NCBI GenBank assembly: GCA_965214495.1
Contig: OZ243958.1
Location: forward strand, 2,338,831 to 2,402,830
Reading direction: 5' to 3'
Length of the DNA stretch: 64,000 nt
Source of the DNA: Alphaproteobacteria bacterium
GTDB lineage: Bacteria; Pseudomonadota; Alphaproteobacteria; UBA7887
Made by a program: the position numbers and the translations under genes. Under the pieces are notes generated by a model that was given only the letters and a program-made list of their open reading frames with translations, was not told where the DNA came from and made no database searches. Below are positions 6,745-40,926 of the stretch, piece after piece. Position 1 is the first letter of the stretch, and the number at the start of each line of letters is the position of its first letter.

Positions 6745-7797
6745 TCACGACCCGCAACCGCCCTGGGCTTGCAGCCGTTCGCCGATGACGCCCATTACCC
6801 GCACCGTTTCAAGGCGGTCTTCGGCCGCGGCGACCGGAGGCAGGCCGCTGGCGCTGCGCTCGACGAACCCTGCGATGGGCCGGTCATGGGTCTTGCGGAA
6901 GCGGCCCGCGAGATAGCCGGCGCCGTTGGCGACGGCGCCCGAGGCGATCTGGGCAGCCTCGCCCAAAGCGGAAAGGCCGATCCCCGCGGGAGAACGGTTC
7001 GCCCGCTTGTAGTTCACCAGCACCTTGCTCTGCATGTCAATCTTCAGCACGCCGTCCGCGCCCCACAACTCCACCATGTAGGCGGAATGCCTGCTTGTAT
7101 AGGTCAGCACGACGCTGCAGGCTGCGCGCTCGCCCGCCAGTTCCAGGTGGTAGTCGTCGAAAGGCGACCAGGGGTATTGGGACAGGACCTTCCGGCCCCG
7201 GACCCGCACCTCCCGGATGGGGCCGACGAACGACCGGGCCAGATACACTACATGAGGGCCGGTCTCGCCTATCGACCCGCCGGGCAGCCGATGGGCGAAG
7301 TGGTCCGGGTCCGTCATCCACAGGGCGACGGGGGTGGAATAGAAGACCCGCATCCCCGTGAAGTCGCCGATGTCGCCGCGCGCGATCCGCCGGCGAGCCT
7401 CGACAACCGATGGGTGGCACAGGTCCGTATGGGCCACTTCCACCCGGCCCCGGGATGCCCGCTGGGCCTCGACGATCCTCTCGCACTCCTCCGCATTTAC
7501 GGCCAGAGGCTTCTCGATCAGGACCTGCGCATCCGCCTGCAAGGCCGCTACCGCCAGACCGGCGTGAGCGCCGGGCGGCGTGCAAATATCGACGAAGTCG
7601 GGACGCTCCCTCTCCAGCATCTGCCGCGCGTTGGCATAAGCCGCTGGAACTCCGAATTGCCGGCTCACCGCCTCGGCGCGGGAGCGGTCGATATCGCAGA
7701 CGGCGACGACCCTCACCTTGCGGCACAGCCGGCGCCAAGCCGGGAGGTGTTTATCGGTCGATATGAACCCGGCGCCTATGATGGCCGCTCTATACAT
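6745..7797 (-). CDS. Gfo/Idh/MocA family NAD(P)-dependent oxidoreductase (sugar dehydrogenase-like)
   Basis: N-terminal Rossmann MYRAAIIGAGFIS...HLPAW, then the EKP motif (VLIEKPLA) and C-terminal alpha/beta domain. Typical of sugar-nucleotide dehydrogenases in polysaccharide loci. Confidence 0.85.
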   Translation of the reverse strand: MYRAAIIGAGFISTDKHLPAWRRLCRKVRVVAVCDIDRSRAEAVSRQFGVPAAYANARQMLERERPDFVDICTPPGAHAGLAVAALQADAQVLIEKPLAVNAEECERIVEAQRASRGRVEVAHTDLCHPSVVEARRRIARGDIGDFTGMRVFYSTPVALWMTDPDHFAHRLPGGSIGETGPHVVYLARSFVGPIREVRVRGRKVLSQYPWSPFDDYHLELAGERAACSVVLTYTSRHSAYMVELWGADGVLKIDMQSKVLVNYKRANRSPAGIGLSALGEAAQIASGAVANGAGYLAGRFRKTHDRPIAGFVERSASGLPPVAAAEDRLETVRVMGVIGERLQAQGGCGS

Positions 7798-7872: not shown

Positions 7873-8886
7873 TCACACGCCGTCCGCGCCCGCCGGGCCA
7901 TTCCGCCGGAACGGAAGAAGGAAGAAGCCGGTTCCCCAGCTCAGGTGCATGGTTGCGAGGACCGCCGGGAGGAGGAGCGCGGCGGGCTCGCGGCGGTGGA
8001 TGCCGACCGTCAGGGATCCGATCGTCAGGACGAAGAGCCAGGCAAGCGGCAGCGCCGCCGCCGCCTCCCAGGGGGCCCCGGCCGGAGCCAGGAGCGCCGA
8101 GACCGCCAGACCCGACACCAACAGCGGGGCGGCGAGATGCCGGAGCCGCAGCGACGCGGGGTGCTGCCGCAGCACCGACCTCTTCATCCGTCCGTAGTTG
8201 AAATATTGCCTGGCCAAGGCGCGCAGCGTGCCGCGGGGCTGGTATTCGACCGCGAGCTCGGGATCGAACCACACCGTCTCCCCGCGCCGCCGCAGCCGGT
8301 AGTTGATTTCGTAGTCCTCGTTGCCAGACAGGGCGACGTTGTAACTGCCCGCCGCCTCCAACGCTTCGCGTCGATAGACGCCAAGGTAGACGGTGTCGAC
8401 CGGCCCCGCGGGGCCGCCGAGCCGATAACGCGCGTCGCCTGCCCCGAGCGGCGTGGTCATCGCGACCGCCACCGCCCGCTCGAAGAACGTGGTCCCGACC
8501 GACCGTTGCCGGCCGCCCACATTCGCGGCCTCCGTTCCGTGAAGCGTCTCGACGGCGCGGCGCAGATATCCGGGCGGGAAAAACGAATGGGCGTCGCAAC
8601 GCGCGATCACACGCCCCTTTGCGATCCGCAGCGCTGCAACGATGCCGGGGATGTGCAACCTGTCGGGGTTGGGAATCAGCTTCACCGACGGGTAGAGCCG
8701 TCGAACGATCTCGGCGGTCGCGGGCGTGTCGGAGCCGTCGGCGACAACGATCTCCACCGGGCCCGCATAGTCCTGGGACAGCGCCGCATCGAGAGCCTTC
8801 GCGATGGTCGCTTCGGCGTTGCGGGCCGGTATGATAACCGACACTAGGGGGAGGCGAGTCGCGGCGGCTGCAACAGGCTGCTTCAT
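7873..8886 (-). CDS. family 2 glycosyltransferase with C-terminal membrane anchor
   Basis: LVSVIIPARNAEATIAKALDAALSQ...EIVVADGSDTPAT... (GT-A fold with a DGS-type motif) and hydrophobic helices at the C-terminus. Start set at the MKQ Met. The ORF track extends it to 8991. Confidence 0.85.
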   Translation of the reverse strand: MKQPVAAAATRLPLVSVIIPARNAEATIAKALDAALSQDYAGPVEIVVADGSDTPATAEIVRRLYPSVKLIPNPDRLHIPGIVAALRIAKGRVIARCDAHSFFPPGYLRRAVETLHGTEAANVGGRQRSVGTTFFERAVAVAMTTPLGAGDARYRLGGPAGPVDTVYLGVYRREALEAAGSYNVALSGNEDYEINYRLRRRGETVWFDPELAVEYQPRGTLRALARQYFNYGRMKRSVLRQHPASLRLRHLAAPLLVSGLAVSALLAPAGAPWEAAAALPLAWLFVLTIGSLTVGIHRREPAALLLPAVLATMHLSWGTGFFLLPFRRNGPAGADGV

Positions 8887-9595
8887 GCGATGATTTTGGA
8901 CATACCCTCTCGACTTGTCACGTCGTCTCGCTTCATACGGGGCGCGCTCCGAAAAGTCATTCGCCGGAGCACACTGCGCTGTTCGCGCCATGTTCTCGAT
9001 CGGCGGGTTCCTTCACCCCTTCCGGAGGGAGAACATTCACGGTCTCCACCGCGACCGTCAAACGAGACGGGCCGGCCGGCGTCTAGAGGCCCGGACGCCG
9101 CTTTGCGAAGACGGCGCCGACGGCGAACAGGAGTTCGCGCACTGGCGGTGGCGATACGCTCGCCGCCGCCCAATATCCTGCATACTAAGGCAAGACCGCC
9201 GATCCTTGGGGGTGGGCGTCGCGTGAAACTTATGCGGGCCGACCGCATGATCGTAACTGAGAGCGCCGGGTCGATACCAACACGGCGCCGACAACAACGG
9301 TAACCGCGAGGCCGCGCAGGATGACAGGGGCTCGGGCTCTCCCGCAGGCCGTCGGTGTTGGGCTTGAGGGCAACGCCGAGCGCTGCGACGGTCCTGCCCA
9401 AGGCGTTACGCCGCCGGCCTGCGCGACTTTTGTGATCGTCCCGGTCCCGGCCTTGCGCCCGCCGTTGCTGCGCAGCGCCGTCTTGACTATGCTGCATGGT
9501 GCGCCGGCTTCCTCGGCGATGCAGGCGAAGAACTTCGCCGTTTCCCTGAGAAAGCAGGAGCCGCTGAAGCCAGGCCCTGCATGCAGGAAATACCG

Positions 9596-9631
9596 CCCAA
9601 TGCGATTGTCGAACCCAATGCGATTGTCGAA
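9596..9631. repeat. perfect 18-bp tandem duplication (CCCAATGCGATTGTCGAA x2)
   Basis: Seen directly in the long GT2 / LRR-Wzy intergenic region. Confidence 0.7.
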
Positions 9632-9814
9632 CCCGATTCCCCTGGCGACTCCCGAGACATCGGCGTTCTCGTTGACAAAGGCAATCTCGGGTCGCAACGG
9701 CGGTATAGCCGTCAAGCGTATCGGCGGCCTCAAAGTTCATGGAACAGGTAGGGGCCGCATCAACCGTTCCCGGACTTCATCCTGCAGCACAACTGCCACG
9801 GCCGATAGAAGCAA

Positions 9815-12800
9815 GTGATCCTGTTCCGACATACGGCCTCGCTGGTGCGCCGCACCGAATCGCTTCAGGCCGCGCTGACCGCTGTCGCGTTCTGGACGCT
9901 GGCGGCGATAGCTCTGGCCGGCCTGCGGGATCTGCATCTTTGGGGGATGCCGCAGGTCGTGGGCGTCACCGCACGGGTGACCATGGCATGCGTAGCCGTT
10001 CTGGCGGGCCTGGCGGGAATCCGATGTCTGGCGGACCGGCCGAAGTCCGGCTTGCGCGCCTCGGTGCTGGGCGCAATAGGCGGAATGCCCGGCATGTTGT
10101 TGATCGGCGCGGTAGCCTCCTATCTGGCGATCGGCGTTGCCGTGATGGACGACGCGGACTGGACGCCGGACATGGCTGCGACAGTGCGGTATGCAGTCCT
10201 CTGTCTCGGTGTGCTCGTCGCCGCTGCGGTTGGCGGCCGCGCCATGCTGGAGCGGGTCGGGGCCGACCGGTTGTTGCGGGGCGTGCTTGTCGTCCTGATT
10301 GGGTGTTGCGCCCTCATTCTCGCTTCGCCGGTGCTGCGCGACCTCGGCGTCCTGGCGCCCTACAGAATCCCGTTCCGCCTGACCGGCGCTTTCACTAACC
10401 CCAACGACGCCGGCCTGGTCGCCTGCATGACGGCGGCTCTCGCCGCGGCGTTGCTGACCAATGGCGGGCCGCGCGGGCTCGGCTGGCTGGGCCTGGCCGC
10501 AGGCGTCGCCGCAGCCCTGGGGACGGCGTCCCGAACCGCTCTGGTCGTGCTCGGCGCGCTGGCGGTCCTGTTCCTGTTGCTCAACCTCCGCAGCAGACCG
10601 AGGGTTCTGGTTGCGACAGGCGTGGTATTGGCCGGGATCGCAGGATTTGTCGGCCTTGTGGGTTTCTCCGGCGGTCTTTCCGAATGGTCGAGGTTGCGGT
10701 CCGGCGCCACGCAAGAGGGAAGCCTGCTCTGCAATCCTTCGCCAACCGACAGGCGGGACTGCGCCGTCCTGCTGGCGGTGAGGGACACGCTGGCGGGGGA
10801 CATCGCCCTGAACTGGAGCCGCGCCCTGCCCGTCGAACGCTGGCAGGGCGTGACGACGGCCGGCCCGGAGGGGCGCGTTACCGAACTGCGTCTTGCGGGA
10901 CTGGGGTTGAACGGCCGCATTCCCCCGGAACTCGGCCGCCTGGACCGCCTGGAGTCGCTGTCCCTTCAGCGAAACCGGCTCACCGGGGGCATTCCGCCCG
11001 AACTGGGCGATCTGGCGAGCCTGCATCATCTGAATCTGGGCTTCAACGCCTTGACCGGAGCCGTCCCGCCGGAGCTGGCGAAGCCCAGGGACCTCTGGCG
11101 GCTACGGCTGAACCACAACCGCCTGACCGGGCCGCTCCCGGCCGCGCTCGGCGATCTCGGCCTGTCCGTCCTGCGCCTCCGGGGCAACGATTTCGACTCC
11201 ATTCCCCCCGGACTCGCCGCCGCCGACAGCGATTGGGCCGATGCGCAGCCTTGCCTGCCGCCGGCGCCGATGAACCGGGCATTGCTGGACGACTGCACAG
11301 CGCTGCTGGCGGCGAAGGAAGCGCTGGCCGGCGACGTCCCGCTCAACTGGCGCGCCGAGCTTCCCGTCGGCAAGTGGCAGGGCGTGACGGCGGGCGGTCC
11401 GGAGGGAGCCGTGACCGGGCTGGACCTCGGCAACAGGGGGCTGAACGGACGCATTCCCCCGGAACTCGGCAGGCTGAAGCGCCTCAGGACGCTGAACCTG
11501 GCCCGCAACCGGCTCACCGGCCCGATTCCGCCGGAGCTGGGACAGCTGACCGACCTGCGCGCATTGGCTCTGGACCGGAACGCCCTGACCGGCGCCGTCC
11601 CGGCGGAACTGGAACAACTCCCCGGACTCGCATCCCTGTGGTTGCGGGAGAACCGCTTCACCGGCCCCGTGCCGTCGGCGTTGTTCGACGTCCCCGAACA
11701 CGATCTCGGCCATTTCCTGTACTGCCTGCCGCCGCCGGCGCCCGGCCTGCCGCTATTCGACGACTGCGCGCTGCTGCTCGCGGTGAAAGAGACGCTGGCC
11801 GGCGACGCCCCGCTAAACTGGCGCGCGGCGCTTCCCGTAGGTTTGTGGCAAGGCGTGACCCTGGGCGGTCCGCAGGGGCGTGTGGCCGGGTTGGGCCTGC
11901 GCCGGAAGGGGCTGGACGGGCGCATTCCGCCGCAACTCGGCAAGCTGGAGGACCTCGAGTGGTTGGACCTGGCCGACAATCGGCTCACCGGCCCGGTTCC
12001 GCCGCAACTCGGCAAGCTGGAGGGCCTCAAGTGGTTGGATCTGGCCGACAATCGGCTCACCGGCCCGGTTCCGCCGGAGTGGGAGACTCTCATCCGGCTC
12101 GACGGCCTGCTGTTGGGAGGAAACAGTCTGGCCGGCCCCGTTCCGCCGCCGCTGCTCGATATCCCCGAACACGATCTCGGCCATTTGCTGTTCTGCTTTC
12201 CGCCGTTGCTGGCCGGCTCCGCCCTGCTTGAAGACTGCGAACGGCTGCTGGCGGCTAAAGGCGCACTGGCCGGCGATGCGCGGCTCAACTGGCGCCGTGC
12301 GCTGCCGATAGGCGAATGGCAGGGCGTGACTACAGGCGGCCCGCAAGGCCGGGTCGTCGCGCTGGAACTGCCACGAATGCGGCTGAACGGGCATATTCCC
12401 GCGGCGCTGGGAGGTCTCGCAGGTTTGCGAGCCCTGGAGCTTGACGCCAATGCGCTGACCGGCGCCATTCCGCCCGAGCTCGGGAAACTGGCCGATCTGG
12501 AAGCGCTCGGGCTTGCCGTCAACGCCCTGACCGGCCCGGTCCCTCCGGAACTGGGAAAGCTGCCCCACCTCAGGGAACTCCGGCTGGGCGGCAACCGCCT
12601 GACAGGCTCCCTGCCCCCGGGCCTGCGGGCGGCAGCAGTCGGGGGAGCGTCCTGCCCCGCCGCGCCTGCCGACAATCCCGCCCTGCGCGCCGACTGCGCG
12701 GTCCTGCTGGCGGCGAGGGACATCCTCGCCGGCGATGAGCGGCTCAACTGGAGCGAGCATGTCCCCATCGATTCCTGGCAGGGCGTTACGCTCGGCGGCT

Positions 12801-15800
12801 CGCCGAAGCGGGTGACGCGGCTCGAACTGTCCGGGTTGGATCTGAGCGGGCGCATCCCTTCGGAGTTGGGGCGGCTGAGCCGGCTCGTGATGTTGAACCT
12901 GAGCCGCAACCGGCTCACCGGCGGCATCCCGCCGGCATTGGGCGGACTGGACAAGCTCGAATCGCTTTTTCTCATGCGCAACTGGCTCACCGGCCCGGTG
13001 CCTCCCGAACTGGGGGCGTTGTCCGCTCTGGAGCGCCTGGTTCTCTCCTTCAACGCCTTGAGCGGCTCGATTCCGCCGGAACTGGGGAAGCTGCCGCATC
13101 TCAGGGAGTTGTGGCTGAAGCACAACCGCCTGACCGGCCCCGTGCCGCCGGAACTTGAAGGGCTGGACAATCTGGTCGTGCTGCGTCTCTCCGGCAACGA
13201 CCTGGACCGCCCCTACCCGCGGCGTCTTTTCAGGATCGCCGACCACGACCTCTTTCGCGACGGTCTGCGCCGCGGCCAGCCGCGAGGCGATGCGGGGGCG
13301 GCGGAGACGGCGGGCCGCCGGGAACCGGAGAGCGGCCCGCTTTGTCGTCCGGGTTCCGGAGGCGCCTCCGGCCTGGATGCCGACTGCGGCCTCCTGCTTG
13401 CGAACAGGGACATGCTGGCCGGCGGCGCGCCGCTCAACTGGAGCGAGCAGGTCCCCATCGACTTCTGGCGGGGCGTCACTGTCGGCGGCTCGCCGAAGCG
13501 CGTGACCGCCCTGGAATTGCCGCACGCGGGACTGGACGGGCGCCTGTTCGCGGCGCTCGGCGAATTGAACGGCCTCGTCGCCCTGGACCTGAGCGATAAC
13601 CGGCTCACCGGCCCCGCGCCGCCGGAACTGGAAAGGCTGGACAAGCTGGCCTTCCTGCGCCTCGCCGGCAACAATCTGGACCGGCCCTTCCCGCCGGCGC
13701 TCCGCAGGATTGCCGACCATGACCTGGACATGCCGGATTTCTGCCGGCCGCAGGCGATCGGTCCGGGCCTGCTCGCCGACTGCGCCCTCTTGTTGTCGGC
13801 AAGGGACACGCTCGCTGGCGATGCGCCGCTCAACTGGCGCCGCGATGCGCCGGTGGACGACTGGCAGGGGGTCGCCGTGGACCGTTCGCGCGGCCGGGTG
13901 GCGGCGCTGGACCTGACGCAGATGGGGTTGAACGGGCGCATTCCCGCGGAGCTGGGGCGGCTTGCCGGGCTCGTTTCGCTGCGCCTCAGCCGCAACCGGC
14001 TCGCCGGCGGCATCCCGCCCGAGCTCGGCAAGCTCGCCGGCCTGCGCGAGCTGGCCCTGGACGGCAACCTCCTGGCCGGCCCCGCGCCGCCGGAACTCGG
14101 CAAGCTGTCGAAGCTCATCGACCTGCGGCTGAACGGCAACCCCTTGACGGGCCCCACATCGGACCGCGGCCCGGACCTGCTCTGCCGGTCGTCGCTCGAA
14201 GGGCGCCTGCATGACGATTGCGCCCTGCTGCTGGAGATCCGGGACGAGCTGGCCGGCGATGTCGAACTGAACTGGAGCGAGGCGGTCCCGATCGACTATT
14301 GGCGGGGCGTTGCGATCGGCCTTGCCGCGGCCGCCGGCAAGGCCGGGGAAGGGACGCGCGTCATCGCCCTGGACCTGTCGCATATGGGGCTGAACGGGCG
14401 GATTCCGGCAAGGCTTGCGGCTCTGGACGCCCTTGCCGTCCTGCGTCTCGGCGATAACCGGCTTGCGGGGTCCATCCCGCCGGAACTGGGCGTCCTGGCC
14501 GGGCTGCGGACGCTGACCCTGGAGAACAACGCGCTGACAGGCAAGATCCCGCCGGAACTGGGCGCGTTGAAGGCGCTCGTTTCGCTGCGCCTCGGCGGTA
14601 ACGAACTCGCCGGCCGCACGCGGCAATTCGCCACCCTGGCCAACCTGCGCGTGCTCGCGCTGGAAAACAACCTGCTGACGGGCAATATCCATCCGCGGCT
14701 TGGCGGCCTTGAGCATCTGGAAGAACTGCTGCTGGAGAACAATCGCCTGCACGGAAAGATCCCCAGGGAACTCCACCGGTTGTCCCGCCTCGCGGTCCTC
14801 CGCCTGGGCGGCAACGCCCTTGCAGGCTGCATCGGGCGCGGCGCGGGTGCGGCGCGGGTGCGGCGCAACGACCTCGCTTCCGCCGACCTGCTCTGCGAAT
14901 CGCCGCCCTGGTCCAAGCCGGGCCTGTTCGACGATGGCGCGAGCCTGATGCGCCTGCGCGACATCCTTGCCGGCAATGCGGTGCTGGACTGGAGCTACGA
15001 GCGGCCCGTTGCGTCCTGGGAGGGCGTCACCATCGGAAACAGCGGCCGCGTCGCCGCACTGGACCTGCAGGACAGGAACCTGACCGGGCGGATCCCCGCG
15101 GAATTGGGCGAACTGCGCCATCTCCGGCGGCTGAGGCTCGACGGCAACCGTCTCACCGGCCCCATCCCCCCCGAACTGGGGAAACTGACACGGCTGGCCA
15201 TGCTGTCGCTGGAGGGCAACCGCCTGACAGGCGCCATCCCGCCGGAGGTCGCCAATCTGCCGAATCTCAGGCAATTATGGTTGGCCGACAACCGGCTCAC
15301 CGGTTCCATCCCGTTCGAATGGGCCCGTGTCCGGGGTGTCTCCCTGGCCGTCGCCGGCAACGACCTGGACAGCTGCATGGCGTGGGAACTGCGCAGCCTG
15401 CGCAGCAGCGATATCGATCACGGCACCGTCTGCACTTTCTTTATGAATCGCAGACCGTTCCTTTGGAGGCTCGGTTTTGAGAAGGCCATGGAGGCGCCCG
15501 TCTTCGGCCATGGCTTCTGGGCGCTGAAATATCTGGAAGGCGCTCCCCTCACCCATAGCGGCTTGCTGCCGGATCCTCACAATCTGTATATAAACTTGCT
15601 GGGAGAGGCCGGTATCGTCCCTCTGCTACTGTTTCTGTCCGCCATCGTCTTGCTTCTGCGCACACAATGGGTCACGCCGAAGTCGCTTGCCCGGGATGCG
15701 GCAGTGGCTTGGGTCATCGTCATCGTCCTGTATTGCATGACCTTCGCGCATCTGTTCGGCAACAAAGCATTCATGCTTATGGCCGGGTTGAGCGTCGCGA

Positions 15801-15847
15801 TAGGGGCGGTGCGGAATGCCGGAGACCGACGCCCTGAGAAAGCGTGA
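9815..15847 (+). CDS. giant O-antigen ligase/polymerase-family (Wzy_C/WaaL-like) membrane protein with a ~1550-aa periplasmic insertion of nine plant-type LRR modules
   Basis: The N-terminal ~300 aa are polytopic and carry the first Wzy_C half (...FTNPNDAGLVACMTAALAAALL...GTASRTALVVLGALAVLFLLL). The C-terminal ~160 aa carry the second half (RPFLWRLGFEKAMEAPVFGHGFWALKYLEGAPLTHSGLLPDPHNLYINLLGEAGIVPLLLFL, i.e. the R...FGxG...HNxYLxxLxExGixGlllfl signature) plus further TM helices. Between them lie nine modules of D-C-x-x-L-L-x-x-[KR]-[DE]-x-L-A-G-D-x-x-L-N-W...W-[QR]-G-V-T...GRV caps followed by 24-residue LxxLxxLxLxxNxLTGxIPPELGx repeats. TTG/ATG start uncertain. Confidence 0.8.
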   Translation: MILFRHTASLVRRTESLQAALTAVAFWTLAAIALAGLRDLHLWGMPQVVGVTARVTMACVAVLAGLAGIRCLADRPKSGLRASVLGAIGGMPGMLLIGAVASYLAIGVAVMDDADWTPDMAATVRYAVLCLGVLVAAAVGGRAMLERVGADRLLRGVLVVLIGCCALILASPVLRDLGVLAPYRIPFRLTGAFTNPNDAGLVACMTAALAAALLTNGGPRGLGWLGLAAGVAAALGTASRTALVVLGALAVLFLLLNLRSRPRVLVATGVVLAGIAGFVGLVGFSGGLSEWSRLRSGATQEGSLLCNPSPTDRRDCAVLLAVRDTLAGDIALNWSRALPVERWQGVTTAGPEGRVTELRLAGLGLNGRIPPELGRLDRLESLSLQRNRLTGGIPPELGDLASLHHLNLGFNALTGAVPPELAKPRDLWRLRLNHNRLTGPLPAALGDLGLSVLRLRGNDFDSIPPGLAAADSDWADAQPCLPPAPMNRALLDDCTALLAAKEALAGDVPLNWRAELPVGKWQGVTAGGPEGAVTGLDLGNRGLNGRIPPELGRLKRLRTLNLARNRLTGPIPPELGQLTDLRALALDRNALTGAVPAELEQLPGLASLWLRENRFTGPVPSALFDVPEHDLGHFLYCLPPPAPGLPLFDDCALLLAVKETLAGDAPLNWRAALPVGLWQGVTLGGPQGRVAGLGLRRKGLDGRIPPQLGKLEDLEWLDLADNRLTGPVPPQLGKLEGLKWLDLADNRLTGPVPPEWETLIRLDGLLLGGNSLAGPVPPPLLDIPEHDLGHLLFCFPPLLAGSALLEDCERLLAAKGALAGDARLNWRRALPIGEWQGVTTGGPQGRVVALELPRMRLNGHIPAALGGLAGLRALELDANALTGAIPPELGKLADLEALGLAVNALTGPVPPELGKLPHLRELRLGGNRLTGSLPPGLRAAAVGGASCPAAPADNPALRADCAVLLAARDILAGDERLNWSEHVPIDSWQGVTLGGSPKRVTRLELSGLDLSGRIPSELGRLSRLVMLNLSRNRLTGGIPPALGGLDKLESLFLMRNWLTGPVPPELGALSALERLVLSFNALSGSIPPELGKLPHLRELWLKHNRLTGPVPPELEGLDNLVVLRLSGNDLDRPYPRRLFRIADHDLFRDGLRRGQPRGDAGAAETAGRREPESGPLCRPGSGGASGLDADCGLLLANRDMLAGGAPLNWSEQVPIDFWRGVTVGGSPKRVTALELPHAGLDGRLFAALGELNGLVALDLSDNRLTGPAPPELERLDKLAFLRLAGNNLDRPFPPALRRIADHDLDMPDFCRPQAIGPGLLADCALLLSARDTLAGDAPLNWRRDAPVDDWQGVAVDRSRGRVAALDLTQMGLNGRIPAELGRLAGLVSLRLSRNRLAGGIPPELGKLAGLRELALDGNLLAGPAPPELGKLSKLIDLRLNGNPLTGPTSDRGPDLLCRSSLEGRLHDDCALLLEIRDELAGDVELNWSEAVPIDYWRGVAIGLAAAAGKAGEGTRVIALDLSHMGLNGRIPARLAALDALAVLRLGDNRLAGSIPPELGVLAGLRTLTLENNALTGKIPPELGALKALVSLRLGGNELAGRTRQFATLANLRVLALENNLLTGNIHPRLGGLEHLEELLLENNRLHGKIPRELHRLSRLAVLRLGGNALAGCIGRGAGAARVRRNDLASADLLCESPPWSKPGLFDDGASLMRLRDILAGNAVLDWSYERPVASWEGVTIGNSGRVAALDLQDRNLTGRIPAELGELRHLRRLRLDGNRLTGPIPPELGKLTRLAMLSLEGNRLTGAIPPEVANLPNLRQLWLADNRLTGSIPFEWARVRGVSLAVAGNDLDSCMAWELRSLRSSDIDHGTVCTFFMNRRPFLWRLGFEKAMEAPVFGHGFWALKYLEGAPLTHSGLLPDPHNLYINLLGEAGIVPLLLFLSAIVLLLRTQWVTPKSLARDAAVAWVIVIVLYCMTFAHLFGNKAFMLMAGLSVAIGAVRNAGDRRPEKA
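10757..15470 (+). repeat. intragenic array of nine tandem LRR modules (~400-700 bp each, diverged at DNA level, with near-identical 72-bp sub-repeats e.g. 11946-12089)
   Basis: Periodic protein motifs and repeated DNA strings, e.g. cggctcaccggcccggttccgccg recurring. Mirror ORFs on the opposite strand are by-products. Confidence 0.8.
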
Positions 15848-15850
15848 CCA

Positions 15851-17101
15851 TTGACCGGGAACAAGCTCCATGTTGGCTTCGCGCTGACCAACCTGAACGG
15901 CGGCGGCGCGGAGCGCGTCACACTCGACCTTGCGGCGGCACTCATCGCGCGCGGACACCGGGCAGACCTGGTCATCCCAAGCCTCGCGGGAGACTACCGG
16001 GCCGCGATTCCCCGCGGCGCGCGGCTGTATCGGGGGCGGTTTCCTCACACCGACAGGACGTTCCTGCGGGAGGTTCGCCGGGCGGGTGTCGAAGTGGAAG
16101 CGATGACCGTCAACCCATTCGGAGTCGCGCGGAGTTGGCTGGTCCTCGCCTGGAAACACCTTGGCATACGGGTGCAGCGCAAGCGTTCCCACTATGCTTC
16201 GGTCTATGTTTTGAACCGTTACCTCCGCGAAGCGTGTCCCGATGTGCTGGTATCGGGGTCGCGGGGCGCCAACGCCGCCGCGGTCTGCGCCACGGAGTTG
16301 ACGCGCCGGGCGGTTCCCGTGGTGGTCACGGTGCATAACAACATTGCCGCCGCTTATGAACCAGAATGGCTGGCCGCCGCCCGGAGTCTCTATCCGCTGG
16401 CCGACGCGGTGGTGGCGGTGTCCAAGGGCGCGGCGGAGTCTGTGCGACGGTCTGTGGGCGTGGACGCCGGGAGTATTCACACTATCTACAACCCCATCCC
16501 CGCTGACGGCATATGGCGCCTGGCGCAGGAGGAAGTCACACACCCCTGGTTTGCGGGCGGCGAGCCGCCGGTGATTCTGAGCGTCGGGCGTGAGGCGCCC
16601 CAGAAGGACTACCCCACCCTGGTGGAGGCGTTTGTGATAGCGAGACGCAAGGCGGCCGCACGGCTGGTTATCCTCGGCAAGCTCTCGGCACCCTACCGGG
16701 AAAAGCTCAAGTCCTTGGCGCGGGGCCATGGCGCGGAGGAAGACCTCGGTTTCATGGACTTCGACGAGAACCCGTTCCGCTACATGCGGCGGGCGGCGCT
16801 CCTTGCGCTCTCCTCGCGCTGGGAGGGCCTGCCGACGGTGATCCTGGAGGCGCTGGCCTGCGGCACGCCGGTGGTCAGCACCGACACGCCCTACGGCCCG
16901 CGCGAGATCCTTGGGCAGTGGGGCGAGTTGCCGCCGGTGGGCGACGCACCGGCGCTGGCGCGGGCGCTGGTCGCGACGCTGCGCGGCGAGCACCCACCGG
17001 AGGAAGCCTTGCGCGCGCGCGCCGCCGAGTTCTCCCCCGAGAAGGCCGCCGACGCCTACGAAGCACTATTCCGAAAGCTGGCGAGGGGGCGAGCACGGTG
17101 A
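15851..17101 (+). CDS. family 4 (GT-B, RfaB-like) glycosyltransferase, tandem paralogue 1
   Basis: TTG start 3 nt after the giant gene's stop. Carries the GT4 EX7E-type C-terminal domain (RWEGLPTVILEALACGTPVVSTD). ~416 aa. Confidence 0.9.
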   Translation: MTGNKLHVGFALTNLNGGGAERVTLDLAAALIARGHRADLVIPSLAGDYRAAIPRGARLYRGRFPHTDRTFLREVRRAGVEVEAMTVNPFGVARSWLVLAWKHLGIRVQRKRSHYASVYVLNRYLREACPDVLVSGSRGANAAAVCATELTRRAVPVVVTVHNNIAAAYEPEWLAAARSLYPLADAVVAVSKGAAESVRRSVGVDAGSIHTIYNPIPADGIWRLAQEEVTHPWFAGGEPPVILSVGREAPQKDYPTLVEAFVIARRKAAARLVILGKLSAPYREKLKSLARGHGAEEDLGFMDFDENPFRYMRRAALLALSSRWEGLPTVILEALACGTPVVSTDTPYGPREILGQWGELPPVGDAPALARALVATLRGEHPPEEALRARAAEFSPEKAADAYEALFRKLARGRAR

Positions 17102-18357
17102 GATCGGATAGACTCCAAGTCTGCATCACGGTAACCAGTCTGGCCGGCGGCGGAGTAGAGCGCAACATTCTCCGTCTGGCACGGTCACTCATCGAACGAG
17201 GACATCGGGTGGACTTGGTGATCCCCCGGTTCGCAGGAGACTACCTGGCGGCGATACCCGGTGAAATGCGTATCTGGCGGGCGCGGATGCCCGGCACCGA
17301 TAGGGCGTTCTTGCGAAAGGTCCGGCGGGCAGGAATCGAGGTGGAGGCGATGACCGTCAACCCCGTCGGCGCTGCGTGTGCCTGGCTGGCTCTCGCCCGG
17401 AAGCATCCCGGGATACCGGTCATACGCGGCAGCGGCATGCGCTCCATCTATCCCTACGCCCATGTTCTGGCTCGCTACCTTCGCGAGGAACGGCCCGACG
17501 TGCTGGTGTCGGCGCATATGGGCCCCAACGCCGTTGCGGTCTGCGCCGCCGAACTGACGGACCGGGCCGTTTCGACGGTGATCACTGTGCGCAATAACGT
17601 CGCCGCCGGCTATGCGCCGCATTGGTTGGCAGCGGCCCGGACGCTCTATCCGCTTGCCGACGCCGTGGTGTCGGTGTCCAGGGGTGTGGCGGAGTCTGTG
17701 CGGCGGTTCGTGGGCATGGATGCCGACCGTGTCCACACCATCTACCACCCCATCCCTGCAGACAGCATATGGCGCCTGGCGCAGGAGGAAGTCACGCACC
17801 CCTGGTTCGCGGGCGGCGAGCCGCCGGTGATTCTGAGTGTCGGGCGCGAGGCGTTGCAGAAAGATCGCCCCACGTTGGTGAAGGCGTTCGGTTTGGCGCG
17901 GCGCGAGGTGAATGCGCGGCTGGTGATCCTCGGCAAGCTGTCGGCCGCCTACCGGGAAAGGCTGCGGTCCCTGGCGCGGAGCCATGGCGCAGCCGAGGAC
18001 CTGGGCTTCGTGGACTTCGACGAGAACCCGTTCCGCTACATGCGGCGGGCGGCGCTCTTTGCGCTGTCCTCGCGCTGGGAGGGCCTGCCGACGGTGGTCA
18101 TCGAGGCGCTGGCCTGCGGCACGCCGGTGGTCAGCACCGATGCGCCCTACGGCCCGCGCGAGATCCTTGGGGGGTGGGGCGGGTTGCCGCCGGTGGGCGA
18201 CGCGCCGGCGCTGGCGCGGGCGCTGGTTGCGACGCTGCGCGGCGAGCACCCGCCGGAAGAAGCCTTGCGTGCGCGCGCCGCCGACTTTTCCGATGACAAG
18301 GCCACTGACGCCTACGAAGCGCTGTTCGAGAAGCTGGTGAGAGAGCGCGCGCGGTGA
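17098..18357 (+). CDS. family 4 glycosyltransferase, tandem paralogue 2
   Basis: GTG start overlaps the paralogue-1 stop (GTGA). The N-terminus VRSDRLQVCITVTSLAGGGVERNILRL parallels paralogues 1 and 3. Confidence 0.9.
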   Translation: MRSDRLQVCITVTSLAGGGVERNILRLARSLIERGHRVDLVIPRFAGDYLAAIPGEMRIWRARMPGTDRAFLRKVRRAGIEVEAMTVNPVGAACAWLALARKHPGIPVIRGSGMRSIYPYAHVLARYLREERPDVLVSAHMGPNAVAVCAAELTDRAVSTVITVRNNVAAGYAPHWLAAARTLYPLADAVVSVSRGVAESVRRFVGMDADRVHTIYHPIPADSIWRLAQEEVTHPWFAGGEPPVILSVGREALQKDRPTLVKAFGLARREVNARLVILGKLSAAYRERLRSLARSHGAAEDLGFVDFDENPFRYMRRAALFALSSRWEGLPTVVIEALACGTPVVSTDAPYGPREILGGWGGLPPVGDAPALARALVATLRGEHPPEEALRARAADFSDDKATDAYEALFEKLVRERAR

Positions 18358-19649
18358 GGCAGGACAAGCTTCAAGTCAGCTTCCTGCTGACCGGCATGAA
18401 CGGTGGCGGGGCGGAGCGCAGTATTCTCCGATTGGCCCGGTCGCTTATTGAGCGCGGGCACCGGGCAGATCTGGTGATCCCCAAATTCGCGGGAGACTAC
18501 CGGGCTGCGGTCCCCAGCGGAATGCGCGTCTGGCGGGCGCGGCTTCCCGGCACCGACAGGAATCTGCTGCGGGAGGTGCAGCGGGCGGGAACCGAGGTGA
18601 AGGCGATGACTGTCAACCCCATCGGTGTCGCCCGCACTTGGCTGGCTCTCGCCGGGAAAGGCTTCAACCTGCCCGTTCGAAGTCATCACCGCATCGCTGC
18701 GTATGCATACATGATCGCCACGTACGTTCGTGAGGCGCGTCCTGATGTGCTGGTGTCAGCGCTGCCGGGCGCCGACACCGCCGCTGTCTGCGCCGCGGCG
18801 TTGACGGACCGGGCCGTTCCTGTGGTGGTCACGGTGCGCATCAACATCGTCGCCGACTATACGCCGGAATGGCTGGCCGCTTGCCGAACCCTCTATCCGC
18901 GGGCCGATGCGGTGGTGACGATATCCCGAGGCGTGGGCGAGTCCGTGCGGCAATCGATGGGGGTGGATGCCGGGCGCGTTCGCACCATCTACAACGGCGT
19001 TCCTGTCGACAGCATACGACAGCTGGCGCAGGATGAAGTCACGCACCCGTGGTTCGCAGACGGCGAGCCGCCGGTGATCCTGAGCGTCGGGCGCGAGGCG
19101 TTGCAGAAAGATCACCCCACGTTGGTGAAGGCGTTCGGTTTGGCGCGGCGCGAGGTGAACGCGCGGCTGGTGATCCTCGGCAAGCTGTCGGCCGCCTACC
19201 GGGAAAGGCTCAAGTCCCTGGCGCGGAGCCATGGCGCGGAGGAGGACCTGGGCTTCGTGGACTTCGACGAGAACCCGTTCCGCTACATGCGGCGTGCGGC
19301 GCTCTTTGCGCTCTCCTCGCGCTGGGAGGGCCTGTCGATGGTGGTCATCGAGGCGCTGGCCTGCGGCACGCCGGTGGTCAGCACCGATGCGCCCTACGGC
19401 CCGCGCGAGATCCTGGGCGGGTGGGGCGACCTGCCGCCGGTGGGCGACGCGCCGGCGCTGGCGCGGGCGCTCGTCGCGACGCTGCGCGGCGAGCACCCGC
19501 CGGAGGAAGCCTTGCGCACGCGCGCCGCCGACTTTTCCGATGACAAGGCCGCCAACGCCTATGTCGCGCTGTTCCGGGAGCTGGTGCAGGAGCGCGCGGT
19601 GAAGCCGGATACACTTCCTGTCATTCCGGGAGAACCGGCGCAGCCATGA
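18354..19649 (+). CDS. family 4 glycosyltransferase, tandem paralogue 3
   Basis: GTG start overlaps the paralogue-2 stop. The C-terminal half is almost identical at DNA level to paralogue 2. Confidence 0.9.
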   Translation: MRQDKLQVSFLLTGMNGGGAERSILRLARSLIERGHRADLVIPKFAGDYRAAVPSGMRVWRARLPGTDRNLLREVQRAGTEVKAMTVNPIGVARTWLALAGKGFNLPVRSHHRIAAYAYMIATYVREARPDVLVSALPGADTAAVCAAALTDRAVPVVVTVRINIVADYTPEWLAACRTLYPRADAVVTISRGVGESVRQSMGVDAGRVRTIYNGVPVDSIRQLAQDEVTHPWFADGEPPVILSVGREALQKDHPTLVKAFGLARREVNARLVILGKLSAAYRERLKSLARSHGAEEDLGFVDFDENPFRYMRRAALFALSSRWEGLSMVVIEALACGTPVVSTDAPYGPREILGGWGDLPPVGDAPALARALVATLRGEHPPEEALRTRAADFSDDKAANAYVALFRELVQERAVKPDTLPVIPGEPAQP

Positions 19650-21019
19650 CGCCGCAAGAGCCGGACAGGCCGGCCGGCCCGCGCACGACCGGCGGACAGG
19701 ATGCGGCCATCGTGTTCGCAACCCAGGCCGGCAGGGTCGTGTTCGGCGTGGCGATCCAGAGCCTCCTGGCCTACACGCTGTTGCCGGAAGGGCGGGGCAG
19801 CTTCGCCGTATGCGTCGTGTTCGCTCACGTTCTCGCCGTGCTCTTCACACCGGGGGCGCGGGAAGGCGCGCAATATTTCGTCATGACAGGGCAGGCGTCG
19901 GTTTCGGAAGGGACCGCCTCCGCCCTGGCGGTCTGCCTCGCCGGCGGGGCTCTGGCGGTCGCCCTGGCGGCCCCGTTCGTCCACAGCGAAACAGCGTTCT
20001 TCCAGCAGGCGGAGCCGAGCGCCTTCTATCTGGCGTTGGCGCTGGTTCCCGTCATGGCGTTCTCGGGTGCGCTGGAGCGCCAACTCGCCGCGCTCCGGCG
20101 TTTCGGGCATCTCGCGGCGTTCACCCTGCTCCATGTCGCCGTGAACGTTCTTGCGCTCCTGGTTCTCGTGCCGGTTTGGGAACTCGGGGTGGACGGCGCG
20201 ATCCTGGCGGCCGCCGCCGCGCACGGTTTTTCGGTGGCGTTACCAATATGGTATCTGCGGCGCCGCCATGGACTGGTTCCGACGAACCCGTTCCGCGCCG
20301 TCTCGTCGCGAATCGTCGGCTACGGGCTGCGATTCCACGCCGCAGGCATAGGCATCGCGCTGGAAATGAGTGCGGGCATCCTCATTCTCGGGCTTTTCGC
20401 CAGCCCGGCGGAAATCGGCCTGTTCGCAACCGCGAGCATCCTCATGTTTCGACTGAAAATGATCTCGGACTCGGTCGGCAGCGCGCTGCTGCCCCGTATC
20501 GCCGGCAGCGGCCGCCCGGAACTGACGGCGCTCTGCCTGCGGCTCGTTCTGTGCGCCACCGCGGCCGCGTGTCTCGCCGTGCTGGCGGTAAGCGCGCCGC
20601 TGGTCCGGATCCTCTTCTCCGAAGCCTTCCTGCCGGCGGTCCCGCTGCTGTGGATTATCGCCCTCGGAGTGCTCGCCTGTGCCGGCGCCGGCATACTCGG
20701 AACCTACTTCAAGGCTATCGACCGCCCGGGCATCTGCTCTTGGGCTGTCTCCCTGGGAGTGGCGGCGAATCTCCTTGCGATTCCCCTGCTCTACCCGGCG
20801 GTCGGCGTCGCGGCCGCGGCTTGGGGGCTGACCCTGGGCATGGCCTGCCGGCTCGTCCTTCTCGCGGCGGCGTTCGCAAGACAGGCCCGAATGACCCGGT
20901 TCTCAATCTGGCTGCCGCAGGCCGGCGATGCGGTCTCCGCCTGGCAAGCGGTCCGGGCTGCGCTCGGCGCCCGAACGCTTCGCGAGGCGGTATTCGACAA
21001 TCGCCGGCCGGGGTGTTGA
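19646..21019 (+). CDS. Wzx-like polysaccharide flippase (MOP/PST family polysaccharide biosynthesis protein)
   Basis: ATG overlaps the GT4-3 stop (ATGA). 457 aa with ~12 predicted TM helices. N-terminal ...LLAYTLLPEGRGSFAV... matches the PST-family LLAR-L-PE-G signature. Confidence 0.85.
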   Translation: MTPQEPDRPAGPRTTGGQDAAIVFATQAGRVVFGVAIQSLLAYTLLPEGRGSFAVCVVFAHVLAVLFTPGAREGAQYFVMTGQASVSEGTASALAVCLAGGALAVALAAPFVHSETAFFQQAEPSAFYLALALVPVMAFSGALERQLAALRRFGHLAAFTLLHVAVNVLALLVLVPVWELGVDGAILAAAAAHGFSVALPIWYLRRRHGLVPTNPFRAVSSRIVGYGLRFHAAGIGIALEMSAGILILGLFASPAEIGLFATASILMFRLKMISDSVGSALLPRIAGSGRPELTALCLRLVLCATAAACLAVLAVSAPLVRILFSEAFLPAVPLLWIIALGVLACAGAGILGTYFKAIDRPGICSWAVSLGVAANLLAIPLLYPAVGVAAAAWGLTLGMACRLVLLAAAFARQARMTRFSIWLPQAGDAVSAWQAVRAALGARTLREAVFDNRRPGC

Positions 21020-21287: not shown

Positions 21288-22412
21288 ATGACGGGCCCCT
21301 CCAATACTCGCGGAAAAATCAAAATTGCCTATGTGATATCGACACTTTGGAGATGCGGCCCATCCATTCAGCTAAAAAACATCTTGCGGCATATGGATTA
21401 CGACAGATTCGAGGTGTCCATAATAACTCTTTCTCCCGAAAGGAAAGATGACTCCCTCATAGGTGAGATTGAATGTCTTCCTCCAAGGATATACCCGCTT
21501 AATATGAGTAGAATTCTCGGATTATTCCGGATGAAAAAACGCTTCCAAGACATAATTGAGTTAATCCATCCGGATCTGATACATAGCTCCGGTTGGCGAA
21601 GCGACACTCTCGTATCGAAATTGAATCGGTCCGCCGTCTGGATTGCAACGTGCAGAAACATTCCCGATATCGACTATCCCTTGGAGTTCGGGAAATATCC
21701 AGGAGCATATATGGCAAGAAGCCATCTAAGGGCTCTGGGAAGATGCGGCAATGTTGTATGCTGCTCGAATTCCATGAAGGCTGAATATGAACAACGCTAT
21801 GGTATGAAAGACGCTTTGGTAGTCCCGAATGGAGTAGAGCTGCCCCAGGATATCGCCAGTGCGTGTGCAGAAAGAAATGGGAACTTCAGAGGCGTGACGG
21901 TAGGCCGGTTGGTTCCTCGGAAGAATGTTCGGTATTTATGTGAGGTTTTCAAGAGACTGGATAACAACAATACAAGGTTGACCGTTATCGGGGATGGACC
22001 GGAATACGGCGATCTTACACGTTATGAAGACAATAGAATATCGCTCGTCGGGCATCGGGGCGAAGACGATGTGTACAGATATCTGCACGGGTCCGACTTC
22101 TTTATGAGCGCGTCATTAGGAGAAGGATTGCCGAATGCCGTATTGGAAGCATTGTCGATGGGGCTTCCCTGTGTGCTTTCCGACATCGGCCCGCATCTCG
22201 AATTGAGGGATGCCATGCCGCCCGGAAGCGTAGAGATTTTCTCCCTGTCCGATCCTCCCGATGCGGTTGCATATAGATTGAAGGACTATTTGGCGACTAT
22301 TGCGAGCCTGCCAAGGGAACAGATCAGGCAGCGAACCGTGGAGAAATACTCGGCGAAAAGGATGTCACAGCGCTATCAGGCATTGTATTCAAGCATCCGA
22401 GCGGCCGCCTGA
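21288..22412 (+). CDS. family 4 glycosyltransferase, compositionally foreign (low GC)
   Basis: 374-aa GT4 (…GEGLPNAVLEALSMGLPCVLSD…). Strikingly AT-richer than its surroundings, with a different codon style. Preceded by a 268-bp gap. Confidence 0.85.
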   Translation: MTGPSNTRGKIKIAYVISTLWRCGPSIQLKNILRHMDYDRFEVSIITLSPERKDDSLIGEIECLPPRIYPLNMSRILGLFRMKKRFQDIIELIHPDLIHSSGWRSDTLVSKLNRSAVWIATCRNIPDIDYPLEFGKYPGAYMARSHLRALGRCGNVVCCSNSMKAEYEQRYGMKDALVVPNGVELPQDIASACAERNGNFRGVTVGRLVPRKNVRYLCEVFKRLDNNNTRLTVIGDGPEYGDLTRYEDNRISLVGHRGEDDVYRYLHGSDFFMSASLGEGLPNAVLEALSMGLPCVLSDIGPHLELRDAMPPGSVEIFSLSDPPDAVAYRLKDYLATIASLPREQIRQRTVEKYSAKRMSQRYQALYSSIRAAA

Positions 22413-22689
22413 GCATGATCGCTTCTTTCACCGTTAGTCCGAGGGGGCGGGAAAGGCTGCCGATGAGAAAGGTGAAGAGGGTTGCCGGGCGTTCGACCCT
22501 AACGAGGCTTACCGCGGAACCCGAACCGCCGGCGCTCCCGGGGTTTCGACGAGGAGCCGTTCGTCCTTTCACACCACGATACCGGAGGGTTTGGTATCAA
22601 GGGGGGTTTCGCCGCTGCCCGCGTGCAGAGGCGTGGAGAGGGCGACGGCTGCCGGGCTCTCCGGCGGAGAGGCCCCAGCGGGAATTTGG

Positions 22690-22990
22690 AGAATCGCTCG
22701 CCCGGACCGTTGAAGAGGCAATAGCGCACGCGCTGTTGCACGGGGGCGAGACGCAGGTGTGGGGCGACGCGGGCTATCGGGGGGGCGGCAAGCGCGAGGA
22801 GAACCGGGGGGCGGCGGAGAGGCGCAAGGCGTCGGTGCGGGCGAAGGGGGGAGCATCCGTTCCTGTATGTGAAAGCACCATTTCGGCTATGCGAAGCTGC
22901 GCTACCGGGGGCTGGCGAAGAACCGGCAGCGCATCGCCGTGCTGCTCGGGTTGGCCAACCTGCTCATCGCCGGGCGCTATGCTGCCGGCT
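22690..22990 (+). pseudogene. IS5-family transposase C-terminal remnant (frameshifted, internally deleted)
   Basis: ...ALLHGGETQVWGDAGYRGGGKREENRG... then in other frames ...EHPFLYVK.. and ..HHFGYAKLRYRGLAKNRQRIAVLLGLANLLIAGRYAAG*. These reproduce the IS5 DDE-tail consensus (LHGxExxVxGDxGYxG ... EHPF ... FGYxKxRYRGLAKN). Confidence 0.55.
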
Positions 22991-23233
22991 GAGGCAGGGC
23001 CCGTCTGTCCGCCACCGCCGCAAGGCGGGACGGGGCATTTGGCCCAGTCTTCGAGCGGTGCTCACCCCCTCTTTCGACACGAAAAGACATGGCTGCGCCT
23101 GTCGAACAGTTGTCGGCCTTTCCCGCACGAACCGAATACGCCCCGCGCAAGCCAAAACCTGGTATGTTCAGACCTTCCCTAACGACCGACGGCAGGTGGC
23201 GACGGCAATGACACGGCCCATGAAGAGCGCGGC

Positions 23234-26079: not shown

Positions 26080-26156
<77 letters not shown>

Positions 26157-40865: not shown

Positions 40866-40926
40866 CGCCCCCGTTGACCATATAACGGATCGAGTTCTCC
40901 GTGATGCGAACCGGGAGGTCGTAACG

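Follow-up and report, generated by a model that had tools for sequence, protein, structure and literature searches.

The window analysed in this study, a stretch of 64,000 nucleotides (nt) on contig OZ243958.1 of an alphaproteobacterial assembly (GCA_965214495.1), carries on its forward strand an operon of five genes, the first of which encodes a giant membrane enzyme of 2010 amino acids (aa). This protein belongs to the WaaL/Wzy superfamily and bears nine modules of leucine-rich repeats (LRRs) inserted in a single loop. The analysis supports a tightly coupled operon for a lipid-linked glycan pathway, with three family 4 glycosyltransferases (GT4), a candidate flippase and a Wzy_C-family enzyme predicted to act in the periplasm. 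We lean, by a modest measure, towards reading it as one copy of a horizontally mobile glycan-assembly unit that occupies positions 9815–21019 and probably includes the genes as far as about 26 kb. The giant protein is a new architecture of a known enzyme superfamily, and the cassette on which it lies has an unusual distribution across phyla.

The five open reading frames (ORFs) are closely packed on the plus strand. The LRR-Wzy_C gene (9815..15847) begins with a GTG codon that agrees with the N-termini of its homologues (MILFRH...), and is followed by GT4a (15851..17101, 416 aa), which starts with TTG 3 nt past the stop of the giant gene (TGA-cca-TTG, 15845–15853). The GT4b gene (17098..18357, 419 aa) overlaps GT4a in a GTGA (17098–17101), GT4c (18354..19649, 431 aa) overlaps GT4b in another GTGA (18354–18357), and the gene of the fifth protein (19646..21019, 457 aa), a MOP/Wzx-type flippase by homology only, overlaps GT4c in an ATGA (19646–19649). 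The ORF listing, third-position guanine-plus-cytosine (GC) content and direct reading of the sequence bore out these five frames and four junctions, which a sequence-only reading of the same stretch had described; in a window of about 67% GC, the third-position value is 0.79–0.83 across the five ORFs and 0.83 in the giant gene. The tight packing is compatible with translational coupling, but the stoichiometric co-expression proposed in that reading does not follow from it, since such overlaps are ordinary operon packing. The related locus L001 is packed in a similar way, with a 3-nt gap, two 4-nt overlaps and a 13-nt gap. No internal terminator-like site stood out in the operon, in a promoter and terminator scan that is uninformative at such GC.

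The assignment of the giant protein comes from its membrane core. The Pfam family Wzy_C (PF04932) matches the full 2010-aa protein as two stretches (46.7 bits), and after excision of the LRRs (aa 306–1850 removed, 465 residues left) the match covers positions 2–149 of 149 with 66.1 bits against a cut-off of 31.7. Since the match becomes continuous once the LRRs are removed, the array is an insertion into one intact domain. Hydrophobic helices number about nine in the first ~300 residues and three in the last ~160. The N-terminal membrane part (aa 1–305; 9815..10729, +), with its approximately nine transmembrane (TM) helices, contains R188, an S239-R240 'ASRT' turn and Arg/Lys-rich cytoplasmic loops, and the C-terminal part (15380..15847, +) contains the catalytic loop and TM10–12, with R1880 (15452–15454), an FGHG motif, H1922-N1923 in 'PHNLY' (15578–15583) and 'GEAGIVP'. 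In family alignments R188, S239(-R/K240), R1880, W1884, G1898/G1900, H1922-N1923 and GEAGI are invariant or nearly so. The residues R215, R288 and H338 are required in Escherichia coli WaaL and conserved in PglL (PMC3643930); R/K240, R1880 and H1922 would correspond to them, an equivalence drawn from domain position rather than direct alignment.

The AlphaFold2 (AF2) model of the LRR-excised core has 12 long helices, a predicted local distance difference test (pLDDT) of 82.5 and a predicted template modelling score (pTM) of 0.83, with low confidence only at the artificial junction, and the model and its structure matches give the core a WaaL-like 12-TM fold. Because the loop residues are conserved and this fold is predicted, the giant enzyme is probably catalytically active. 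The only solved relative among the structure matches is a ligase, WaaL; no Wzy_C-type polymerase occurs among them, and the WaaL match may thus lean to a ligase reading. A profile search of the core against PDB sequences gave no match. The WaaL O-antigen ligase of Cupriavidus metallidurans (PDB 7TPG/7TPJ) is about 17–18% identical to the giant enzyme, with no profile match at the sequence level, and has no inserted domain, whereas the giant enzyme has 1550 LRR residues in the loop before the catalytic segment. Arg/Lys-rich stretches lie in loops 70–81, 142–155 and 258–262, in the loop after TM10 and at both termini, and loop 110–118 is acidic. The predicted topology is N-in/C-in and, as in WaaL, puts the insertion that follows TM9 on the periplasmic side; the positive-inside rule and the homology with WaaL would place the array in the periplasm, and its paired cysteines agree with this.

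The LRR array occupies aa 306–1855 (10730..15379, +), and the LRR families and a module alignment divide it into nine modules on the plus strand, of which modules 1–3 lie at 10730–11251, 11252–11722 and 11723–12193, modules 4–6 at 12194–12652, 12653–13342 and 13343–13741, and modules 7–9 at 13742–14182, 14183–14893 and 14894–15379. Each module consists of a Cys-x11-13-Asp-Cys helical cap, the segment 'LLA..D.LAGD..LNW....P...W.GVT' and then 3–6 plant-type LRRs of 24 residues. The Pfam families LRR_1, LRR_8, LRR_4 and LRR_14 match the giant protein, very strongly as LRR, and 25 strict matches to the repeat LxxLxxLxLxxNxLTGxIPxxLGxL show the expected conservation profile. The repeats are of the plant-type (plant-specific, PS) class, with an LRRNT_2-like cap alignable to the N-caps found in GSO1 and FLS2. 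In PDB sequence searches the best matches of the array are ectodomains of plant LRR receptor-like kinases, N-cap included, and the LRRs swamp a search made with the whole protein. The plant receptor ectodomains (GSO1, FLS2, PEPR1, ERL1) and PGIP share with the array the 24-residue repeat and the LRRNT_2-like cap 'LNW..W.GV'. The plant receptors form one long solenoid, however, whereas here nine short domains of 3–6 repeats each lie on a string, in an array that is bacterial, predicted to be periplasmic, placed within an enzyme loop and without a kinase.

The family alignment confines the LRRs to one loop, which is short in LRR-free relatives. No Wzz domain (PF02706) was found in the giant protein or in the window, and the insertion itself forms an LRR solenoid. 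AF2 modelling of a natural member with two modules gave a pair of confident, helically capped LRR solenoids connected by linkers of low confidence; in the window protein the linkers between modules contain few Ser/Thr. Relatives of 560–630 aa with a different, non-LRR insertion in the same loop were also observed (P0168 and P0171; L001 18174–19877 and 20156–end; L030, L032 and L038), one of them with a weak PMT_2 match. The loop after TM9 seems to tolerate insertions.

Conservation of the array argues that it matters to the enzyme. The modules of the window protein are 47–63% identical to one another, and in 15 other giant genes the best match to module i is, with few exceptions, the module at position i (60–82% against about 50–55% off the diagonal), with a less strict correspondence and some turnover at positions 2–3. 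In the alignment of 16 orthologues, column entropy averages 0.85 in the array, against 0.97 in the N-terminal and 0.84 in the C-terminal membrane part; the two cysteines of each module, which could form a disulfide, are kept and the LRR scaffold positions are nearly invariant. Since the modules correspond position by position between genomes and are conserved to the same degree as the enzyme core, the array is, on these alignments, under purifying selection as nine distinct domains, and the same conservation across phyla suggests that the LRRs are a working part of the enzyme. A recent origin of the array by repeat slippage was rejected, given the divergence between modules and their positional orthology.

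Exact sequence look-ups recovered no record of either the giant protein or the flippase. The family of the giant enzyme was searched with the LRR-excised core as query, so that the LRRs would not swamp the results. This search returned 86 proteins, mostly LRR+Wzy_C fusions of 775–813 aa, with LRR-free relatives of 448–484 aa at 35–38% identity. A HMMER search over 1.84 billion representative proteins found 314 core relatives, 74 of them at E ≤ 1e-30 and including representatives of 1997 and 2058 aa; with only 314 relatives in such a collection, the subfamily is rare. One genome per GTDB species was scanned with a pattern, which yielded 57 loci, all on contigs or chromosomes of metagenome-assembled genomes (MAGs) of 0.3–6.1 Mb. 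The loci with the cassette lie on complete MAG chromosomes of 2.5–6 Mb labelled as more than 10 phyla, and the labels among the MAGs of the scan are Alpha- and Gammaproteobacteria, Bryobacterales/Terriglobia, Vicinamibacterales, Nitrospirales, Gemmatimonadota/Longimicrobiales, Candidatus Entotheonella, Binatia, Latescibacteria, Dehalococcoidia and Caldilineaceae. By ORF tracing, intact giant genes of the nine-module class (2004–2036 aa) are present in at least 12 loci and intact ORFs of about 2000 aa in at least 20, and the intact cassette ORFs span 1795–2371 aa. Further long classes are of 1795–1805 aa (8 modules), 2183–2231 aa (10) and 2371 aa (11), and short ones of 779–831 aa (2), 986 aa (3) and 1176 aa (4). 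The window gene is a typical member of the nine-module class rather than a unique expansion.

The gene order [LRR-Wzy_C]-GT4a-GT4b-GT4c-flippase, often followed by AsnB, was recovered by tblastn in other loci (L001, L004, L007–L011, L016–L022, L025 and L041), which represent Alpha- and Gammaproteobacteria, Acidobacteriota, Nitrospirales, Gemmatimonadota and Entotheonella. Across the cassette loci protein identity is 70–80%, with 70–82% for the GT4 proteins and the flippase, and the cassette has a GC of 0.66–0.69 throughout, against 0.55–0.71 in the flanks. Two tandem tyrosine-recombinase genes lie directly upstream of the giant gene in L004, and an integrase and an IS91 transposase do so in L006. 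The flanks of 26 related loci (134 ORFs) contain 175 Pfam families, of which Uma2, Phage_integrase, ABC_tran and transposases are the most recurrent; priming transferases, Wzz and outer-membrane polysaccharide export (OPX) proteins are not among the recurrent ones. The cross-phylum occurrence at such identity, the constant GC beside varied flanks and the adjacent integrases and transposases argue for horizontal spread, as would be expected of a self-contained unit that depends on its host for priming and export. No relatives were found in IMG/VR, on which ground phage carriage of the cassette was rejected. The Uma2 family of putative restriction endonucleases is the commonest flanking family (6/134 ORFs), ahead of integrases. 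A genome may hold several LRR-Wzy_C copies; in L010, L012 and L015 each GT4 gene is preceded by an LRR-Wzy_C gene of its own (giant-GT4a-short-GT4b-short-GT4c), and L005 has a tandem of three LRR-Wzy_C genes. The ancestral building block may have been a repeated 'LRR-Wzy_C + GT4' unit.

The left edge of the cassette can be placed by comparison with its closest relative, L004. Nucleotide homology between the two starts at 9802 and is collinear to 20730, at 78–85% identity. Just upstream, on the minus strand, lies a pseudogene of the UDP-glucose/GDP-mannose dehydrogenase family (9012..9740), which is frameshifted and 5'-truncated, with the central domain in the frame 9230–9733 and a trace of the C-terminal domain in the frame 8883–9740. 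Its N-terminal domain is missing and would fall where the giant gene starts. Because the homology with L004 starts where the dehydrogenase loses this domain, the left edge would lie at about 9800 and the arrival of the cassette would have truncated the dehydrogenase gene. The sequence-only reading had seen a degenerate fragment at 9230–9733, and the fragment is indeed decayed; its identity as a truncated UDP-sugar dehydrogenase pseudogene is added here. That reading had further taken 6350–6596 for the decayed N-terminus of an ABC exporter and proposed that an older ABC-dependent locus was overwritten. The ORF that covers this segment (6201–6596) opens with a hydrophobic stretch, but it has no Pfam match, and tblastn against the related loci gave only chance-level similarity. 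An overwritten ABC-dependent locus finds no support, and the sequence points instead to a mobile cassette whose homology starts at 9802.

The three GT4 genes that had been claimed are borne out, as all three proteins pass the Glyco_transf_4 and Glycos_transf_1 cut-offs. They are 72–75% identical overall, 62–65% in the N-terminal halves and 83–92% in the C-terminal halves. The N-terminal halves follow orthology between genomes (GT4b of the window and of L004, for example, are 90% identical), and the C-terminal halves are uniformly alike, GT4b and GT4c of the window being more similar to each other (92%) than either is to its own orthologues (86–87%; L004, L011, L001 and L041). The C-terminal domain of GT-B enzymes serves mainly to bind the nucleotide sugar. 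The simplest reading would be a single donor sugar used in three acceptor contexts, together with some gene conversion, which looks restricted to the donor-binding half of GT4b and GT4c. The best named models for the GT4 proteins are PglJ/PglH, below cut-off. The fifth protein has about 12 hydrophobic segments, but no direct Pfam match even at E ≤ 1 and no NCBIfam match. It has 216 homologues, of which those at 75–77% identity carry PF01943 (Polysacc_synt), PF13440 (Polysacc_synt_3) and PF03023 (MurJ), and one homologue weakly matches 'O-glycosylation flippase'. The Wzx claimed for this position is accepted as a candidate MOP/Wzx-type flippase through close homologues and not by any family match of the window protein itself.

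Together, these genes suggest the following pathway. A transferase encoded elsewhere would supply a carrier-lipid primer, which would be extended in the cytoplasm by the three GT4 enzymes; their near-identical donor-binding halves and differing acceptor halves suggest that the same sugar is added at three successive positions. The MOP/Wzx-type protein would then flip the product to the periplasmic face, where the 2010-residue enzyme, with the fold and conserved residues described above, would perform the final transfer. This transfer could be polymerisation of repeat units or en bloc ligation to an acceptor, either lipid or protein. Most likely, the LRR array would serve as a flexible binding arm that holds the acceptor or a partner at the active site.

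Several observations weigh against this pathway or against parts of it. No curated NCBIfam model (WaaL, Wzy, PglL, TfpM or exosortase-associated ligase) reaches its cut-off with the giant protein. The periplasmic placement of the array is a prediction from the positive-inside rule and WaaL homology, and the placement of the LRRs with respect to the active site is putative, since the LRR-bearing model has a pTM of 0.55. The flippase assignment is transitive, passing through homologues. The array itself gives no pointer to a protein or glycan ligand: the net charge per module is near zero (−6 to +2), and the concave face is neither unusually conserved nor hypervariable, with no marked difference from the convex variable positions. 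Two candidate properties of the LRR surface were rejected on these grounds, a basic, polyanion-binding one by the net charge and a diversifying, arms-race one by the lack of hypervariability on the concave face. In L023, L027 and L028, giant copies of nine modules (about 2005–2032 aa) stand alone, with no GT4 or flippase gene within 10 kb on either side, so coupling to the cassette glycan is not universal. The sponge origin proposed below for the MAGs is inferred.

What the giant enzyme transfers, and to what, is where explanations diverge. The sequence-only reading called it an LRR-Wzy; the LRR families and the Wzy_C fold stand, but they do not establish a polymerase, as the family also includes ligases and protein O-glycosyltransferases. 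On the sequence evidence, a polymerase and a ligase or oligosaccharyltransferase (OTase) have roughly equal odds. A ligase or protein O-OTase of the WaaL/PglL kind, which would transfer the glycan en bloc while its LRRs recruit protein acceptors or its Pro/Ala/Ser-rich linkers are glycosylated in cis, is in its full form a minority possibility that we nevertheless take seriously. It would fit the solved relative being a ligase, the typical binding of proteins by LRRs and the best named models of the cassette proteins, which are the exosortase-associated O-glycosylation ligase and the O-OTase TfpM for the giant enzyme, PglJ/PglH for the GT4 proteins and, weakly, an O-glycosylation flippase for a homologue of the fifth protein. 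Multiple paralogues per genome with different arrays, and the orphans without GT genes, would also suit donor-promiscuous OTases or ligases. The scores of the named models are, however, far under their cut-offs (about 22 bits against 188–600, with TfpM at 22 against 600), neither PglL_A/PglL_B nor Wzy_C_2 domains were detected in the giant protein by Pfam, the linkers are poor in Ser/Thr, and the structure match may be biased as noted. The O-OTases PglL, PilO and TfpM share with the giant enzyme the Wzy_C core and the conserved R/R/H residues, and also a design in which the enzyme is physically joined to a protein module, a possible substrate or adaptor; they differ in that the giant enzyme has no PglL_A/PglL_B-type motifs and no pilin or other known target adjacent to it.

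Alternatively, the giant protein could be the Wzy polymerase of a Wzx/Wzy pathway in which the LRRs replace or dock a polysaccharide co-polymerase (PCP), set chain length or bridge to export, and we regard this as unlikely. The cassette does hold the minimal set of Wzx, GTs and one Wzy_C protein, and here it resembles Wzy polymerases with PF04932, in whose operons the same components are found together; a polymerase specific to its own repeat unit would go well with a portable cassette. Scans of all sizeable ORFs with Pfam confirmed that Wzz/PCP, Poly_export (OPX), Bac_transf and WecA-type genes are missing from the 64 kb, as had been stated for Wzz/PCP and the priming transferase, and PCPs are missing from the recurrent flanking families too. 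The discrete classes of 2, 3, 4 and 8–11 modules are ruler-like. The absence of a wzz or priming gene from such glycan clusters is commonplace, however, and needs no substitute. Like the Wzz/Wzc co-polymerases, the array is a large, predicted periplasmic extension tied to a Wzy_C-type enzyme and comes in discrete size classes, but it has neither a Wzz domain nor a coiled coil and is not flanked in the two-TM topology; it is made of LRR solenoid beads on flexible linkers and does not look like a Wzz-type ruler. The earlier suggestion that the array substitutes for, or works with, a distant PCP finds no support beyond the missing PCP gene. The interleaving of two or three LRR-Wzy_C genes with single GT4 genes and the GT-less orphan giants would be odd for unit-specific polymerases, and the cassette departs from known Wzy loci by its several paralogues per locus or genome, its orphan copies and the LRR insertion.

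It is also conceivable that the LRR array is the real payload, directed at a sponge host, with the Wzy_C core mainly an anchor and the glycan genes incidental, but we hold this very improbable. The closeness of the LRRs to plant and other eukaryotic receptor ectodomains, the abundance of the same module type in small stand-alone proteins (one from a Geodia barretti holobiont contig), the reported status of LRR proteins as sponge-symbiont signatures (PMC4453008) and the orphan copies would favour it. The catalytic-loop residues and the entire core are conserved across phyla, though, the insertion lies within the enzyme loop rather than at a terminus, the order with the GT4 and flippase genes is kept in most loci, and a diderm cell would keep the array in its periplasm, concealed from the host. 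That the giant ORF is an artefact or a decaying repeat-expansion pseudogene is effectively refuted: the gene is very long and repetitive and some relatives are fragmented (L003, L006 and L024), but its third-position GC, the intact counterparts in at least 20 loci and the diverged yet positionally orthologous modules speak for a maintained gene.

The carriers of the cassette are probably a sponge symbiont community. The taxon mix of the 57 loci is typical of high-microbial-abundance sponges, all loci come from one style of MAG submission, and the naming style agrees with that of the sponge genome notes from Sanger (PMC12648040). With module 7 as query, 258 stand-alone LRR proteins of the same capped type were recovered (including P0207–P0326), most of them small (140–258 aa), and one has been deposited under the name Geodia barretti, its contig also carrying bacterial-type genes. 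That contig (L060 4330–6900) encodes several single-module LRR proteins and an fn3-LRR protein. The eukaryotic-like proteins of sponge symbionts, with ankyrin (ANK), tetratricopeptide (TPR) and leucine-rich repeats, resemble the array in the eukaryotic type of the LRRs, the occurrence in many phyla of an apparently sponge-type community and the mobile-element neighbours; the described ones are stand-alone or secreted, whereas the array is fused within a glycan-processing membrane enzyme, and its host association is inferred. More speculatively, and with a low probability, the cassette could be a phylum-crossing 'symbiont badge', in which a WaaL/PglL-like enzyme glycosylates or presents a glycan through its own LRR array, so that the host reads a signature or phagocytosis is evaded. 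If this were true, any acquiring bacterium would display the same glycan-LRR signature, and altered surface glycans would be united in one molecule with eukaryotic-like repeat proteins, both being classic signatures of sponge symbionts.

Full-text literature searches on O-antigen ligases and polymerases, Wzy_C, LRRs and sponge symbionts gave no description of an LRR-Wzy_C fusion, nor of an LRR insertion as a feature of Wzy, and the accession numbers of the MAGs had no match in the literature. Seven cluster representatives were checked, five LRR-Wzy_C fusions among them, and none was named as a fusion by its source. The enzymes WaaL, Wzy and PglL decide which glycan reaches the bacterial surface, and their recognition of acceptors or partners is still poorly understood; a natural enzyme with nine conserved LRR domains in the loop by the active site offers a route to study it. 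This LRR-enzyme has been kept intact while moving among more than 10 phyla of apparently one host-associated community, and the fusion would give the long-noted enrichment of LRRs in sponge symbionts a concrete biochemical context.

The glycan cluster extends beyond the five genes to which it had been limited, as a divergent GT2 gene and MocA-type oxidoreductase gene lie upstream and GT4d, a 255-aa ORF and an AsnB-type gene downstream. The GT2 glycosyltransferase (7873..8991, −) belongs to a divergent operon and has relatives that adjoin related Wzy_C loci. The GFO/IDH/MocA sugar oxidoreductase (6745..7797, −) is weakly similar to UDP-GlcNAc 3-dehydrogenase, with relatives beside the cassette in L013, L033, L048 and L054. 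A 28-aa remnant of a second GT2 C-terminus (6654..6734, −) is the only recognisable remnant in the region 5000–6800, which otherwise has no coding homology to any compared locus. Downstream, GT4d (21288..22412, +), a distantly related fourth GT4, lies in a lower-GC stretch, passes the GT4 domain cut-offs and is kept beside the cassette in L002 and L031. It is followed by an ORF of 255 aa without a family match (22415..23182, +), conserved in the 92%-identical contig L002, and by an AsnB-type glutamine amidotransferase (23234..25234, +), which passes TIGR01536 and has the XrtA/PEP-CTERM model TIGR03108 as its best model, below cut-off; an AsnB-type relative follows the flippase in L001 and L017. 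In L002, an 8-kb contig, an insertion sequence (IS) with DDE_Tnp_1/DUF4096 lies between the 255-aa ORF and AsnB (4060–5602), and the contig has an extra GT4 copy, so this downstream part of the island is under rearrangement in close relatives. A further ORF of 289 aa without a family match (25254–26123, +) overlaps at its 3' end a tRNA-Met gene (26080..26156, −), which stands just before a housekeeping asd/leuB/leuC block and may mark the right edge or integration boundary of the glycan island; no integrase was found near it on the window side.

Elsewhere the window has housekeeping genes, an IS5-type transposase and one more GT4 that stands alone, with a single Wzy_C gene in all, and Pfam scans of the window revealed no lipopolysaccharide-core genes. 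The gene content, which includes CobST, PhaR and a BhcA-like aminotransferase, suggests an alphaproteobacterium. The lone GT4, which is EpsE/stp2-like (39696–41018, −), is located 19 kb from the cassette, with clpB on one side and a Bax1-I family gene on the other. An IS5-like DDE transposase (45704–46816, +) and RlaP, of the RNA-repair polymerase-beta family (46941–47822, −), occupy a low-GC patch (0.61), and this patch (45704–47822) is likely a second foreign insertion, unrelated to the glycan locus.

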